Assembly (NCBI GenBank): GCA_041690295.1
Contig: JAWLHR010000007.1
Span: forward strand, 60,019-124,018
Direction: 5' to 3'
Source: Bdellovibrionales bacterium
Lineage (GTDB): Bacteria > Bdellovibrionota > Bdellovibrionia > Bdellovibrionales > UBA1609
Length of the DNA: 64,000 nt
The stretch's first letter is position 1. Each line of letters starts with the position of its first letter. A program made the position numbers. Shown here piece by piece: positions 45,001-51,000 of the stretch.

Positions 45001-48000
45001 GTCGTCGTCACAAAAAATTACTTAAGCGGGCCAGCGGCTTTTACTCCGCGAACTCCAGATCATTCACTCATGCGCGCGAAAAAGTGGATCGCGCTTTGGC
45101 GTATGAGTATCGCGATCGTCGCGTAAAAAAACGTGACATGCGCGCGCTTTGGATTCAGCGGATCAATGCGGCCGCCAGACTGAACGGAACCAGCTATTCC
45201 ACTCTCATGGGCGCCTTAAAGAAATCCGGAATCGATTTGAACCGCAAAGTTCTTTCGGATTTGGCGATTCGCGATGCGAATGCCTTCGCGGCTCTCGTCA
45301 AGCAGGTTCTGCCCCAGGCTTCGGCTTAAAGAGCCGGGGAAGTGGCGGGCTGATGGCCTTTCACGAACCAAACGTGGATTTTGAAAAGCGCAAGCGCGAT
45401 CACCTTCGCCTTGCGCTTTCGCTTAAAAATCAAGCCATCGGCAAGGCCGGTTTCGACCGGGTGGAGTTGATTCATGAGGCTCTGCCCGATCTCGACTTTT
45501 CAGAAATCAACATTTCCAGTCGTTCACTGGGTTTCCAATCACCGACACCCTTTCTCATCAGCTCGATGACCGCAGGTCATGGGGATTCAACCCATCTCAA
45601 CGCGTTGCTGGCGCGGGTGGCCCAGGATTTCGGTTGGCGCATGGGGGTGGGCTCCCAGCGTCGCGAACTGAACGACAAGAACGCCGCCAAAGAATGGAAA
45701 GCCATTCGCCGGCAGGCGCCAAAGGCCCGATTGTTCGGTAATTTAGGAATTTCGCAGCTCATTCACTCACCCGTCGATAGCATCGAGCGCTTGGTGGATT
45801 CGTTGGAAGCTTCGGGCATGATCATTCATCTAAATGCGCTGCAAGAATGCCTGCAGCCGGAAGGCACGCCCAATTTCCGGGGCGGTCTTAAGGCCATCCG
45901 GAATTTGGCTAAAAAATTAAGTGTACCGGTGATCGTGAAGGAAACCGGCTGCGGATTTTCGCGCGCCACCTTGAAGCGCCTGAGCGGTTTAGGGCTCGGT
46001 GCGGTGGATGTGAGCGGGTTCGGCGGAACCCATTGGGGACGAATTGAAGGTGATCGCAATTCCCGAAGCGATGCGCGACGGCAGGCCGCTGAAACTTTGG
46101 CCGACTGGGGAATTCCCACGGTTGAGAGCCTGGCTGAAGCAATCACTCTAAAACGGGACTACGAAGTTTGGGCATCCGGCGGCGTGCGCACCGGGCTCGA
46201 TGCGGCTAAGCTCCTGGCGATGGGTGCGGATGTAGTGGGCTTCGCGGCACCGGTGTTGGCGGCCGCGGTCCGTGGCGAAAAGAATTTGCGCCAACTCATG
46301 AGCTCCATTGAATTCGAAGTGAAAACAGTGATGTTTTGTACGGGATGTAAAGACATCAATGAACTGCGAAAGAAGAAGGTTTGGAAATGGCGGGGGAAAT
46401 AAATCCTGGCGGAATGTTCCAAGGTTTTTCGAAATTAAGCCGTGAAGAGCGGTATCAGCGTCTTTTGGAAATGGGCGCACTGACGGCCGATGATGTGCGG
46501 TTCTTGCGTTCGGGAGCCAAGGTGCCGGTTGAACTGGCGGAAAAGTTCATTGAAAACGTCCTCGGATTTTTCCAGTTACCTCTTGGAGTGGCGACGAATT
46601 TCGTCATTGATAATAAGACCTATGTCATTCCCATGGCGGTCGAGGAGACATCAATCATCGCGGCGGCGAGCAAGACCGCCAAGTGGATTCGCGAGCACGG
46701 ATTTATCACCACGGAAATGCGCGGCACCGAGATCATCGGTCAGATTCAAATCGCCAAGGTGAAAGATTACGCCCATTTGGTGGAGATGACCAAAGCCCGT
46801 GAAACGGAATGGGTGGATCTCGCCAACCGCGAGGTCGCCGCCGGACTCGTCCGCCGTGGCGGCGGCATCAAACGCATGGAAGTCCGCCGGGTGGATCGGG
46901 GCGATGGCACCTACATGGCCGTTATCCATGTTTACGCTGACCCTTGCGACGCCATGGGCGCGAACATCATCAATCAAGTTTGTGAATTTTTAAAACCCCA
47001 TGTGGAAGCGGCCACCGGTGAGACGGTCACCATGTGCATCCTTTCGAATTTGGTGGATTCACGTTTGACTCACGCCCGCGTGGAAATGTCCGGATTGGAT
47101 CCGGAATTAATGGAGCGAATTGAAGAGGCTTCGTTGTTCGCGCAGATGGATCCCTATCGCGCGGCCACCAACAATAAAGGTGTGTTGAACGGCATTGATC
47201 CCATTTTGATCGCCACCGGTAATGATTGGCGCGCGGTCGAGGCGGGCGTTCACGCCTTTGCGAGCCGCAGCGGCCAATACCGCTCGATCACCACTTGGCG
47301 CCGCGAGGGCGGTCGGTTGGTGGGCGAAATCACGGCGCCGATTATTTTAGGCGTGGTCGGTGGAGTTACGACTTTGCACCCGACGGCGAGCCTTTGCTTG
47401 CGTCTTTTGAATGTGACCAGCGCCGAAGAACTTTCGCGCGTCTGCGCCGCCGTGGGCTTGGTGCAAAACCTTGGAGCTTTGCGCGCGCTCACCACGGTGG
47501 GGATCATCGAAGGCCATATGAAACTTCACATTAAAAACCTAACTCTGGGAGCTGGCGCCAATGAGCGGGAGATTCCTTACGTGCAAAAACGCCTGGAAGA
47601 AATCCTCTCGTTGAAAAAACGGATTTCATTAAGCCAAGCCATAGAGGTATTGAAAGAATTGCGAGCGCAAGGGCCCGCACGTGAGCTTCCATGAGACTTA
47701 TTTTTTCGGCACCAAGCAAAACCTTCCTCGTCGGCGAGTATGCCGTTCTGGGATCTTCTCCGGCTTTGGTGCTGAATACCAAACCCCGCTTTGAACTGAT
47801 CGCGCGTAAAAAAGAGGGCTCACTCAATATATTTCCCGAGGGCAGTCCGGCTCAGGCCTGGATCCGACAAAGGGAGCCGGTCCTTAACGGTTGGTCGCTG
47901 GAATTCAAGGATCCGCACAATCACCAGGGCGGCTTTGGCGCGTCCAGCGCCCAATTTATTTTCGTGCACTGTCTGACGACTTATTTGCAAAGTTCGTTCG

Positions 48001-51000
48001 CCAAAATCACCGACATTTTCGATAAAGAAGCGGTCTGGAATGATTATCAGGTGCTGACGAATCATCGGGGAAGCGGAGCGGATCTGCTTTCGCAAATCCA
48101 AGGGCGGATCGCCTATGTGGATGTCACCACCCGCCACACGCGGGCGTTAAGCTGGCCTTATCCCGAGATCGGTTTCGGCATCGTGCGCACCCATCAAAAA
48201 ATCAGGACCCATGAGCATTTGCAACAAATCGATCGTAAGCAAATGTCGCTGCTGGTCCGTCCGGCGCAGGACTGCATTGACGCGTTCGGCACCTCTTCCA
48301 GCGAAGTTTTCATCGGCCGGCTAAAGGCGTTCTCGGCGGCATTGAAGGAGTTTTCATTGCAGGCGCCCGCCGCATTGACCTTGATTCGTTTTCTCGAAGA
48401 ACAGCCCTGGTGTTTGACCGCGAAAGGTTGCGGCGCCCTTGGCGCGGACACGGTTTTGTTTTTGTTCCCCATGGACGAGCGCGAGAAAATGCTGTCGTTC
48501 GTGCGCAAGAATTCACTGAATCTCGTAGCCACGCGCGATGATCTCTGCGCGGGCTTGGAAATGAAATTGACGGTGGGAGACTCGGATGAAGATTGAAGCG
48601 TCGGCTCCCTCCAACATCGCGCTGATTAAGTATATGGGCAAAACACCGGGAAATCGGCCGGCCAATCCGTCCTTGTCATACACGCTGGAGCATTTGCGTT
48701 CCTTCGTGACCATCGAGCCGATCGCGGGCGAGCGTGACGAATGGCGGCCACTTTCGGGTTATCAGCCCATTTCATTAAGTGAAAAAGGTTTGGGAAAATT
48801 TTTGAATCACTTCGCCCGCTTGAAGGATCATTGGCGGGTGTTGGGCGCCTATCGCATTTCCTCGGCGAATAATTTTCCCTCGGATTGCGGGCTGGCCAGT
48901 TCCGCCTCCAGTTTCGCCGCTTTGACCGAGGCCACTTACGCTTTGGCCAAAGCCACCCATCCGGGACTGGAAGTTTCCAATGAGGAGTTATCGGTTCTCT
49001 CGCGCCAAGGTTCAGGTTCTTCTTGCCGCTCCTTCTTCTCGCCCTGGGCGGAGTGGGAAGACGAGGGCGCGCGCGCTCTGGATCTTGATCTTCGCCTGGA
49101 GCATGCTGTGATCGTGGTGGATGAGCGGGTGAAAGAAGTTTCCTCCAGCAACGCTCACGAATTGGTGAACACCAGTCCGAATTGGGTGGGTCGCACGTCG
49201 CGGGCCAAGGAGCGATTGGAAAAATTAAAAGTGGCTTTACGTGATGGTGATTGGCGCATGGCCTTTGAGATTTGTTGGGATGAGTTTTTGGATATGCATT
49301 CGCTTTTCGAAACCGCCACGCCGGCGTTTTCCTATTTGAACGGCGGCTCCAAAGAGGTTTTGATCAAACTTCGGGAGATCTGGGGCCGGGACGGTGACGG
49401 TCCGCTCATCACCATGGACGCGGGGGCGAACGTTCATATTTTGATTCGTCCGGATCAGATCCGAGCGGCCGAACAATGGCTTGATGGATTCAAAGTGATC
49501 AAGAGCTGGGGTGAGTGATGCGGGAATTTTCCACTCGGACTTTTGGTAAATGGATTTTAGCGGGCGAGCACGCGGTTCTCAGAGGATGTCCGGCCATGGC
49601 CTTCCCATTAACCAGCCGCTTTCTTCAACTCGATTACACACCCGGAACGGAATCATTGAAGGTTGAATTCCTCGGTGAGCATGGCGCGGACCTCAAGCTC
49701 TTGTTTTACGGCGTGCTTGATAATGCCCTGAGCCGCCTGAACGTCAAAGCGCCAGGCGGGCATTTTAAGGTGACCAGTACATTACCTGTAGGTACCGGAC
49801 TTGGCGCTTCAGCGGCGCTGTGTGGAGCGGTTTCACGGTGGTGTAGTGCGATGCAGTGGATAGACGAGAGTGAAGTCTATGAATTCGCGCGGCGTTTGGA
49901 GGATCTCTTTCATCTCGAAAGCTCGGGTGTGGATTTGGCCGTGTCGTTATCTGCCCGGGGAATTGTCTTCGTCCGCGACGGCGAACAACGGAGAATCGAG
50001 CCGAAATGGACGCCTAAACTCTATTTATCCTATTGCGGTCGGCGGGGAATGACGTCGGATTGTGTAGCGAAGGTGAAGCGAATCTTTGATGTGGACCCCG
50101 AAGGCGCGCGGAAGATTGACTCCTGGATGCTTCAGGCGGTCAGGCAGGCTGAGGAAGCGCTTGGGCAAGATGCGTCGACTGGTTTAAAGGGGCTTGAAAG
50201 TGCAATCCGCCAAGCGGCCCGGTGTTTTGAAGCTTGGGGGCTATGTAACGATGATTTGACCAACCATATTCGTCTACTTACTGGAGCAGGAGCTCTAGTG
50301 GCGAAGCCGACTGGCAGCGGTGGTGGCGGATTTGTATTGAGTTTATGGGAGGAGAGACCTCCCGTATCATTAGAGGCACATCTCATTCCCGCTTTTGCGG
50401 TTCAGTAAACATTTGCTGTAAATTTGCGTTTTAGCGAGTGAACGTGGTAGTGACTAGCTAGATGGTTCTGCAATACCAGGACTTCTTACTAGAAGAATTT
50501 CGCGTGCGCCGCAGCCGCAATCCCAACTACTCTCTGCGGGCGTTCGCGCGAGACCTCGGCATGCCGGCATCCAAGCTTTCACAGAATCTGCGCGGTCTTT
50601 GCGGGATTTCCGTCGCCAAAGCGGAAGTCATCGCTGATCGTTTGCAGCTTCGCGAAGACGATCGCCGGTTGTTTTTGACCTTGGTCGAATCGCAACATGC
50701 GCGCTCACGGGTGGCCCGCAAACAAGCCTCGGACATTCTTGAGGGCATGTGCCGTGATAAATTGGACCAACTGGATCTCGCGAAGTTCACGGTCATTCGC
50801 GACTGGTATCACATGGCTATTTTGGAAATGACCATGTTGCGTGATTTCCGTCCTGATTTTTCATGGATCGCATCACGTTTGGATCTGCCGGCGGAGATCG
50901 TCCGCGAAGCGGTGGCGCGACTCAAGGAATTAGGTTTATTAAGGATCGAGGATGATCGCTGGATTCAGTCCAGTGAAAATATGGAGCTTCCCAGCGGACC

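Follow-up and report, generated by a model that had tools for sequence, protein, structure and literature searches.

A mevalonate operon without HMG-CoA synthase in a Bdellovibrionales genome: isoprenoid synthesis apparently fed by leucine degradation

The locus described here resembles the classical mevalonate pathway of Streptococcus, Enterococcus and Myxococcus, in which the reductase, two GHMP kinases, the decarboxylase and the isomerase share one operon and the thiolase lies elsewhere. It differs in that no HMG-CoA synthase is found in the operon or the genome, and in that the second kinase falls outside all Pfam and NCBIfam models. Entry of leucine carbon into the pathway at HMG-CoA, via isovaleryl-CoA dehydrogenase (IVD), is described for Trypanosoma brucei in PMC5993337, which also cites leucine-to-sterol work in Leishmania. 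In T. brucei, however, leucine is one of two routes and the null mutant gets by through an acetyl-CoA bridge, whereas the present genome encodes no second HMG-CoA route. At HMG-CoA, LiuC of Myxococcus xanthus likewise connects isoprenoid synthesis with leucine-type intermediates, but this organism has the synthase MvaS, and its LiuC/MvaS/AIB link makes isovaleryl-CoA (PMC5389471); the present genome has no such synthase, and the proposed flow would be reversed. Legionella has an “incomplete” mevalonate pathway with no recognised PmvK and mostly no HmgS, and its isomerase-reductase-kinase gene string is shared with our locus. The 2026 review that describes it leaves both gaps open, and leucine and Bdellovibrio are absent from its main text (PMC13001223); we propose a gene for the PmvK gap and a leucine route for the HmgS gap. 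The missing synthase, which the initial annotation suspected might already have been noted, is thus on record for Legionella, and it appears as a reaction without a gene in the B. bacteriovorus model iCH457 (PMC7529429). Leucine-to-sterol flux is already known in trypanosomes. For the sole-route version, we found no proposal concerning Bdellovibrionota or Legionellales in the literature searched (subscription journals and bioRxiv supplements lay outside it).

The window, a stretch of 64,000 nucleotides, comes from a genome that is 99.89% complete. Its five plus-strand ORFs form one operon with successive overlaps of 22, 4, 11 and 4 bases (Table 1) and, together with their family matches, bear out the five-gene mevalonate operon of the initial annotation. 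The reductase, decarboxylase, isomerase and mevalonate kinase of the classical pathway are all found, the decarboxylase (143 bits against TIGR01240, cut-off 171) and mevalonate kinase scoring below their TIGR cut-offs. For the reductase, position 46381 is the ORF limit, and a downstream ATG may be the true start. The ORF upstream of the isomerase, which from its sequence we take to be rplT, belongs to a family present at 34 of 80 related loci, and the operon is probably transcribed onward from the rpmI-rplT transcript.

Table 1. Coordinates of the features discussed (plain numbers, positions in the window; C numbers, other contigs of the genome)
Feature	Position	Strand	Supporting match or remark
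rplT (L20), presumed	44973..45329	+	23 bases 5' of isomerase ORF
Type 2 isopentenyl-diphosphate isomerase (IDI-2)	45353..46402	+	TIGR02151, 360.6 bits (cut-off 281.3)
Class II HMG-CoA reductase	46381..47694	+	PF00368, E 1e-90; TIGR00532, 344 bits (cut-off 260)
Divergent GHMP kinase, putative phosphomevalonate kinase	47691..48596	+	no Pfam/NCBIfam family
Diphosphomevalonate decarboxylase	48586..49518	+	PF22700, 104.9 bits; PF18376, 33.4 bits
Mevalonate kinase	49515..50408	+	TIGR00549 best family, 126 bits (cut-off 163); GEHA motif
liu cluster	C22:34368-39533		methylcrotonyl-CoA carboxylase (MCC) beta, hydratase, biotin carboxylase, BCCP, HMG-CoA lyase
Isovaleryl-CoA dehydrogenase (IVD)	C6		best PDB match IVD, E 1e-104
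Leucine-dehydrogenase-like gene	C8		
E1 alpha/beta	C14		putative branched-chain 2-oxo acid dehydrogenase
Acetoacetyl-CoA thiolase	C25:8061-9233		TIGR01930, over cut-off
Second FabH	C4:97013-98011		

Alignment with 1qax shows that the reductase keeps the catalytic Glu, Lys, Asp and His columns, whose roles we presume to be the familiar ones. In the cofactor helix, an Arg precedes the GGG in all 75 relatives. The NADH-type helix Dx(V/L)xxxL of the Pseudomonas mevalonii enzyme was not found, as there is no Asp and the last residue is Arg in 75/75 relatives; of the Streptococcus NADPH-type helix (H/Y)xSxxxR, the Arg is there and the His/Tyr and Ser are absent. These motifs of class II reductases are defined in PMC13488460 together with an “undefined” clade, into which the present enzyme fits by motif, and it appears to be NADPH-leaning. 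The L. pneumophila reductase reduces HMG-CoA and favours NADPH 14-fold (PMC13488460).

The third ORF matches no Pfam or NCBIfam family at E ≤ 0.1, hence no curated phosphomevalonate kinase (PMK) model, and the above-chance matches of its profile are GHMP kinases only. Its structure model (pLDDT 93.8) has a GHMP fold, and the best VIA match is 3k17 (Z 27.1, rmsd 3.0, 281 aligned), that is Lin0012, which we take to be a PMK; the PMK structure 3gon scores Z 25.1. Sugar kinases also reach Z ~25, with mevalonate kinase (MVK) and PMK structures within 2 Z of them, and Foldseek, which ranked galactokinases first, did not name the substrate. The window kinase shares with 3k17 the GE-Y motif and the Asp after the last glycine loop, presumably marks of PMKs. 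Its relatives carry GE-Y in 87 of 96 cases and the terminal Asp in 93 of 96; mevalonate kinases, by contrast, have GE-H (51/51) and Gly (49/51). On fold and motifs, this ORF is most likely the PMK of a new family, and the assignment made in the initial annotation holds for it as a candidate. The family is common to Legionellales and other host-dependent bacteria, and lies behind the reductase in 22/22 Legionellales loci. Synthase-bearing genomes are scattered over its tree, which has long branches and implies six changes, three of them forced by well-supported branches; we claim no direction of synthase gain or loss.

The searches agree with the earlier claim that the genome lacks HMG-CoA synthase. 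PF01154 gave no match at E ≤ 10 (8 of 14 controls were positive), and the archaeal model TIGR00748 and a 13-sequence synthase-family profile reached only two FabH-type proteins. FabH-like genes had been named beforehand as possible divergent synthases; at the active-site columns Glu/Cys/His/Asn, the first protein has Ala/Cys/His/Asn and the second Asp/Cys/Thr/Tyr, and neither carries the full set. LeuA-D, for leucine synthesis, were not found in the genome. The MEP pathway, also said to be absent, is indeed missing as far as Dxr, IspD, IspF, IspG and IspH are concerned: IspG was not found, and E. coli queries for the other four had no match at E ≤ 0.01, with the controls IspU and Frr found. 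The acetoacetyl-CoA thiolase serves catabolism too.

Leucine degradation, proposed earlier as the HMG-CoA source, is encoded by IVD, MCC alpha and beta, methylglutaconyl-CoA hydratase and HMG-CoA lyase. The best PDB match of MCC beta has an E-value of 6e-241, the lyase exceeds the NF004283 cut-off, and the hydratase is assigned from its cluster position and a crotonase match. E1 alpha/beta fall under the NCBIfam cut-offs; their best PDB matches, 1um9 (6e-27) and 1qs0 (1e-18), are 2-oxo acid or 2-oxoisovalerate dehydrogenases, and a branched-chain oxo acid is the candidate substrate.

Since the synthase is absent and the lower pathway present, isoprenoids are most likely built from prey or peptide leucine. 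We consider it probable that the lower mevalonate operon is biosynthetic and that leucine breakdown is the sole supply of HMG-CoA, a flux that, like the substrates of the kinase and of E1, we infer. Leucine from prey protein or peptides would enter a cell without leucine synthesis, be deaminated, and pass through the branched-chain oxo-acid dehydrogenase and IVD; MCC and methylglutaconyl-CoA hydratase would then yield HMG-CoA. The NADPH-leaning reductase would divert HMG-CoA to mevalonate, with the lyase disposing of any surplus, and the two kinases and the decarboxylase would convert mevalonate to IPP, so that the C5 unit carries the five isovaleryl carbons. The initial interpretation as a whole is thereby supported, and gene linkage, complementarity and published Tn-seq are added to it.

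The synthase gap extends beyond this genome, to most of the phylum and to Legionellales. Among 201 genomes of the order, each at least 90% complete, the decarboxylase occurs in 197, MCC beta in 198, HMG-CoA lyase in 196 and IspG in none. PF01154 matches four of them, and two of these matches are true synthases. The PF01154 match in G061 belongs to a polyketide beta-branching cassette and that in G002 is a FabH. G215 and G234 were also dropped as synthase carriers, their proteins being FabH-like. Plain catabolism also accounts for retention of the cluster because the lyase is so widely kept, and lyase loss in small genomes, which would have been a clean test, is not seen. Five relatives with genomes of 1.3-1.6 Mb retain reductase, decarboxylase, MCC beta and lyase, and in four small genomes the sole short acyl-CoA dehydrogenase bears isovaleryl-CoA enzyme motifs.

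A phylum sample of 161 genomes (34 common to the order sample) contains one synthase and 111 decarboxylase genomes, 100 of which have MCC beta and 11 no match to it at the E-value threshold used. Family f15 looked like a real counter-example until G239, the one genome examined, of which 76% was read, showed a divergent leucine-type cluster below that threshold, with Bacillus-type BCCP, lyase, hydratase and carboxyltransferase; neither an IVD orthologue nor a dedicated biotin carboxylase turned up in the part read. We presume that clusters of this type are linked to the functions of the yng genes. No documentation of these functions was found in PMC3097244 or the literature searched. Among 37 outside genomes with this kinase, a true synthase occurs in four of the five without MCC beta versus five of the 32 with it (Fisher p 0.008, though related genomes are not independent observations). 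On balance we lean towards the view that the synthase-less module makes leucine the sole essential isoprenoid source in most Bdellovibrionota and Legionellales, that it persists only in leucine-degrading amino-acid eaters, and that it gains a synthase where the leucine route is missing.

Published Tn-seq in two relatives fits a leucine-fed pathway; essentiality and Legionella reductase activity are taken from papers, whereas gene presence and absence, fold, motifs, co-occurrence and linkage are observed here. In the L. pneumophila data (PMC7811196), IVD, MCC alpha, MCC beta and the hydratase are essential in all four calls, as are the reductase, lpg2053, MVK and MVD; MCC beta has 0/98 and the reductase 0/91 insertion sites hit. 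The valine genes mmsA, mmsB and short-chain dehydrogenase are not essential there, and the supplement holds no K01641 row. The lyase (7/68 sites) and adjacent thiolase (4/70) are hit, strongly depleted later and called essential. Their essentiality is not required by the leucine-fed model, and acyl-CoA toxicity or polarity could be the cause of whole-cluster essentiality. In axenic B. bacteriovorus 109J (PMC6561027), the isomerase, reductase and decarboxylase have zero insertions, and IVD, hydratase and biotin carboxylase (0.17 sites on average) are labelled “ND”, a label without definition in the text found, as are both 3-methyl-2-oxobutanoate dehydrogenase genes. MCC beta (1.0 ± 1.1) and BCCP (3.6 ± 2.9) have fitness values and therefore some insertions; the lyase (fitness 0.40-0.54 on prey) and three other acyl-CoA dehydrogenases tolerate them. 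Leucine dehydrogenase is dispensable in both organisms, in the same data. The 109J pattern is similar to that of L. pneumophila but noisier, and its lyase is dispensable. RS04265 and lpg2053 were equated with the window kinase by gene position, not sequence. Essentiality of the oxo-acid dehydrogenase may instead reflect a role in branched fatty acids.

Undecaprenol, quinones, heme A and hopanoids are essential isoprenoids. If the leucine route is correct, a predatory phylum and Legionellales rely on leucine breakdown for isoprenoids, the “catabolic” liu operon becomes core anabolism, a new PMK family is named, and the enrichment of mevalonate genes in predators would stem from a peptide diet, not from prey acetoacetyl-CoA. 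It would also answer the printed Legionella question on PmvK and HmgS (PMC13001223), correct the gene-less synthase and NADH reductase of the B. bacteriovorus metabolic model (PMC7529429) and provide a natural blueprint for terpenoids from protein-rich feedstock; it may inform the design of growth media (leucine or isovalerate, biotin) for predators not yet cultured.

It is very improbable that the HMG-CoA lyase runs in reverse, condensing acetyl-CoA and acetoacetate under the pull of the reductase. This condensation is unfavourable at cellular concentrations. The near-universal lyase and the essentiality calls for lyase and thiolase in L. pneumophila speak for such a reaction, yet essentiality there is stricter for MCC beta than for the lyase, and 109J tolerates lyase insertions. 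We give equally little credence to scavenging of mevalonate or later isoprenoids from prey or medium, with a dispensable or degradative reductase. The usual Gram-negative prey run the MEP pathway and are not known to make mevalonate. A predatory life with many auxotrophies (PMC7529429), a reductase above the cut-off of TIGR00532, a model titled “degradative”, and the G240 operon without a reductase would suit scavenging, but the reductase has no NADH-type motif and takes no insertions in axenic 109J or in L. pneumophila.

An unrecognised enzyme, either non-homologous or the second FabH, could condense acetyl-CoA with acetoacetyl-CoA while liu serves ordinary catabolism; we consider this unlikely. 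A non-homologous synthase would be invisible to profile searches, iCH457 includes the reaction, the second FabH has an acidic Asp at the synthase's Glu column, and 10 of the 11 decarboxylase-bearing phylum genomes without an MCC-beta match still count for it. However, that FabH has Thr and Tyr where the synthase has His and Asn, and it is patchy (80/201 order genomes), which led us to drop it as a universal hidden synthase; FabH-type domains are absent from the five small genomes (0/5 at E ≤ 0.1), 80 loci show no conserved gene of unknown function beside the operon, and no LeuA-like condensing enzyme was found in the window's genome apart from the lyase. Nor would a hidden synthase foresee essential leucine-branch genes or the linkage of reductase and liuB. 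The liu and mevalonate blocks, unlinked in Bdellovibrionales, stand head-to-head in three other, related families, where G268, G304, G319 and G325, all with no synthase found, have reductase and kinase opposite liuB with ~40-105 bases between. The block in G319 also carries squalene synthase and squalene-hopene cyclase.

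The five genes of the mevalonate operon lie where the initial annotation had placed them, with neighbouring genes overlapping by 4-22 bases. Four of the five ORFs match the expected families, and the third is without any family match. HMG-CoA synthase, which had been claimed to be missing from the host genome (G000), was not detected there: PF01154 gave no matches at E<=10 with positive controls, and the genome is 99.89% complete. Further queries of G000 with an archaeal model, a relative's true synthase and a profile built from 13 synthase-family sequences reached only FabH and a second FabH. 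The host thus differs from the classical mevalonate pathway in the absence of its synthase. Searches of G000 for the MEP enzymes IspG, Dxr, IspD, IspF and IspH found none, although the controls IspU and Frr were recovered. LeuA-D and IlvI searches returned off-target matches only, and leucine must therefore come from outside.

A leucine-degradation route, also predicted by the initial annotation, is encoded on four contigs of G000. With no synthase, a leucine route present and a lineage-wide pattern, isoprenoid synthesis fed by leucine is the best explanation of the synthase-less operon, and a probable one.

Locations of the operon, the leucine route and associated features (C, contig; L, locus)
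Feature	Location	Remarks
Mevalonate operon	window 45353-50408	
Third ORF (unnamed kinase)	window 47691-48596	
DUF4423/TIGR02147-type HTH protein	window 50462-51250 (+)	directly after operon; same neighbour in 7/80 loci
Prepilin-like ORF	window 51366-52481 (-)	
Methylcrotonyl-CoA carboxylase (MCC) beta, hydratase, biotin carboxylase, BCCP, lyase (liu genes)	G000, C22	
Isovaleryl-CoA dehydrogenase (IVD)	G000, C6	
Leucine-dehydrogenase-like gene	G000, C8	
E1 pair	G000, C14	putative as to substrate
Second FabH (KAS III-like)	G000:C4:97013-98011 (L060:1489-2490)	Cys kept; Thr, Tyr for catalytic His, Asn; gene precedes acyl-CoA ligase, opposite an SDR
ispU and frr	G000:C3:195630-196942	adjoining, no dxr in between; E. 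coli arrangement differs
Leucine-to-hopanoid block	L233 (G319:C53:1-16837), L234 (G325:C43)	isomerase, kinase, decarboxylase, polyprenyl synthase-like, squalene-hopene cyclase, squalene synthase, kinase+reductase, liuBCDE
Two-subunit 2-oxoacid:ferredoxin oxidoreductase	L246:2753-8130 (G268)	after liuB-liuC
Polyketide beta-branching-type cassette	L004 (G061:C92)	KS, reductase, HMG-CoA-synthase-like gene, hydratase, consecutively
BCCP-lyase-hydratase-carboxyltransferase string	L255:1011-4525 (G239)	in place of usual liu cluster
Mevalonate operon without reductase	L243:7751-12783 (G240, family f16)	isomerase with long N-terminal extension

The reductase passes a model named 'degradative'. It lacks the Asp of NADH-type enzymes, and the Arg of NADPH users is present in 75 of 75 relatives. 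These cofactor motifs are defined in a study that assigns the Legionella enzymes to an 'undefined' clade and in which the L. pneumophila reductase reduces HMG-CoA with a 14-fold preference for NADPH (PMC13488460).

Next to a kinase and a diphospho-type decarboxylase the missing step is phosphomevalonate kinase, for which we infer the unnamed gene to be the candidate. This agrees with its earlier assignment and draws on a GHMP-kinase model, 3k17-like motifs and operon context. The predicted structure (pLDDT 93.8) is a GHMP kinase, with Listeria Lin0012 as the best structural match (Z 27.1, rmsd 3.0, 281 residues); the phosphomevalonate kinase 3gon (Z 25.1) ranks amid sugar and mevalonate kinases, which means that the substrate cannot be read from the fold. 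Judged by sequence, motifs separate the protein from the neighbouring mevalonate kinase: the GE-x motif has Tyr in 87/96 relatives, as in 3k17, versus His in 51/51 mevalonate kinases, and the terminal position has Asp in 93/96, again as in 3k17, versus Gly in 49/51. A search for relatives of the protein gave 512. In the collected genomes the kinase family counts 335 relatives, of which the best 80 belong to Bdellovibrionales, Legionellales, Coxiellaceae, Parachlamydiaceae, Holosporaceae and further Gammaproteobacteria. No unknown gene accompanying the operon emerged from 80 related loci.

A synthase hidden among FabH-like or thiolase-fold genes had been raised as an objection. The thiolase-fold census of G000 comprises three thiolases, FabF, FabH and the second FabH, and the Glu-Cys-His-Asn set is absent from both FabH proteins; the second, present in 80/201 order genomes, has Asp in the column of the synthase Glu. 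Moreover, five Bdellovibrionales of 1.3-1.6 Mb, all with the reductase, have no FabH-type domain (0/5), and in two of them the archaeal synthase model reaches a thiolase only. These genomes are G145, G163, G159, G127 and G197 (three in one contig, 92-94% marker completeness). In four small genomes a single short acyl-CoA dehydrogenase bearing the IVD motifs is retained, as are the E1 pair and the leucine-dehydrogenase-like gene; the second carboxyltransferase is lost in G145 and G163. Such domain searches are blind to a non-homologous HMG-CoA-forming enzyme, and one could, though improbably, supply HMG-CoA instead.

The observation of a mevalonate operon without synthase is real and lineage-wide. 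Among 201 Bdellovibrionales genomes (at least 90% complete), 197 have the decarboxylase, 198 MCC beta, 196 the lyase, none IspG and four a PF01154 match. Of these matches, two (L002 and L003, family f5) are true synthases situated away from the operon; another belongs to a beta-branching cassette, and the last is a FabH. Compared with the operon synthases of Parachlamydiaceae, the G017 synthase reaches 518-539 bits, which suggests acquisition by transfer. Across 161 phylum genomes (34 common to both samples) we counted one synthase, 111 decarboxylases and 114 MCC beta genes, and 100 of the 111 decarboxylase-bearing genomes also have MCC beta. Family f21 has MCC beta in 10/10 genomes and no decarboxylase match; liu genes therefore do not imply the mevalonate module. 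Outside the group, 37 kinase loci not titled as Bdellovibrio relatives, from genomes whose completeness is not given, yielded 9 true synthases, 32 MCC beta genes and one IspG. Four of the five without MCC beta have a synthase, the one exception being a bin of 1.4 Mb; the association (p 0.008) is overstated, because the four represent two lineages. In 22 Legionellales-titled loci, the kinase follows the reductase in 22/22, with MCC beta in 21/22 and synthase in 2/22.

In four genomes of families f24, f28 and f30 (G268, G304, G319, G325), reductase and kinase are arranged head-to-head to liuB at a distance of about 40-105 bases; the remaining pathway genes lie near the junction, and no synthase is found at E<=1e-30. 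The junction carries liuBCDE in G304 and G319, liuBC in G268 and liuB alone in G325, and in G319 hopanoid genes are added to the linked block. The oxidoreductase of G268 is possibly the entry step to isovaleryl-CoA. In Bdellovibrionales the two blocks are unlinked, liu genes being absent from all 80 related operon loci (0/80).

Leucine feeds the mevalonate pathway in haloarchaea and myxobacteria. It has also been shown to do so in T. brucei (PMC5993337), and the proposed supply of the host operon would work alike. Legionella is reported to lack PmvK and mostly HmgS, with alternatives asked for, and Bdellovibrio is listed simply among mevalonate users (PMC13001223); a Bdellovibrio metabolic model has the synthase reaction without a gene and leucine as an auxotrophy (PMC7529429). 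The predator mevalonate signature recurs in PMC4451040, PMC4646340 and PMC5941755, the first of which offers a prey-acetoacetyl-CoA idea; PMC6107057, supplements aside, contains neither 'leucine' nor 'Bdellovibrio'. In literature outside subscription journals we found no proposal of leucine as sole isoprenoid route in these bacteria, and the leucine-fed reading gives a direct test for a question already open in print.

Published Tn-seq data support the leucine-fed model, but not cleanly. In L. pneumophila (PMC7811196), the reductase, lpg2053 (at the kinase position), MVK and MVD are essential, as are lpd, lpg1824, lpg1825 (one call uncertain) and lpg1827-1830 on the 20-row branched-chain degradation map; mmsA, mmsB and others on it are not. 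MCC beta was hit at 0/98 sites and the lyase at 7/68, followed by a 5-log2 drop, while insertions are tolerated in lpg1826, inside the cluster, and lpg1831. The main text lacks the words mevalonate, leucine and isoprenoids. For B. bacteriovorus 109J grown on peptone-yeast extract, the data (PMC6561027) show zero insertions in isomerase, reductase and decarboxylase and give 'ND' for the kinase-position genes, IVD, hydratase, biotin carboxylase and the oxo-acid dehydrogenase pair. Fitness values exist for the lyase, leucine dehydrogenase, CoA transferase and three other acyl-CoA dehydrogenases, and, with large scatter, for MCC beta and BCCP. The support is qualified: toxicity of trapped acyl-CoA could render the liu cluster essential, and no definition of 'ND' was located.

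Apparent counter-examples to the leucine-fed reading are eleven phylum genomes (f15, f16) that have the decarboxylase with neither synthase nor MCC beta match; PF01154 was blank in the five tested. In one, G239, synthase and MEP genes were absent from the 76% of the genome searched; the closest annotated match of its BCCP-lyase-hydratase-carboxyltransferase string is a Bacillus cluster of the same gene order (62% identity to a B. amyloliquefaciens gene), a type that presumably degrades leucine. G240, without a match to synthase or MCC beta genome-wide, is a possible mevalonate scavenger. Eight f15 loci (L236-L242, L244) carry a membrane ORF of about 200 residues between decarboxylase and mevalonate kinase, one of the eight with a weak Rce1/CAAX-protease-like match (E 0.004).
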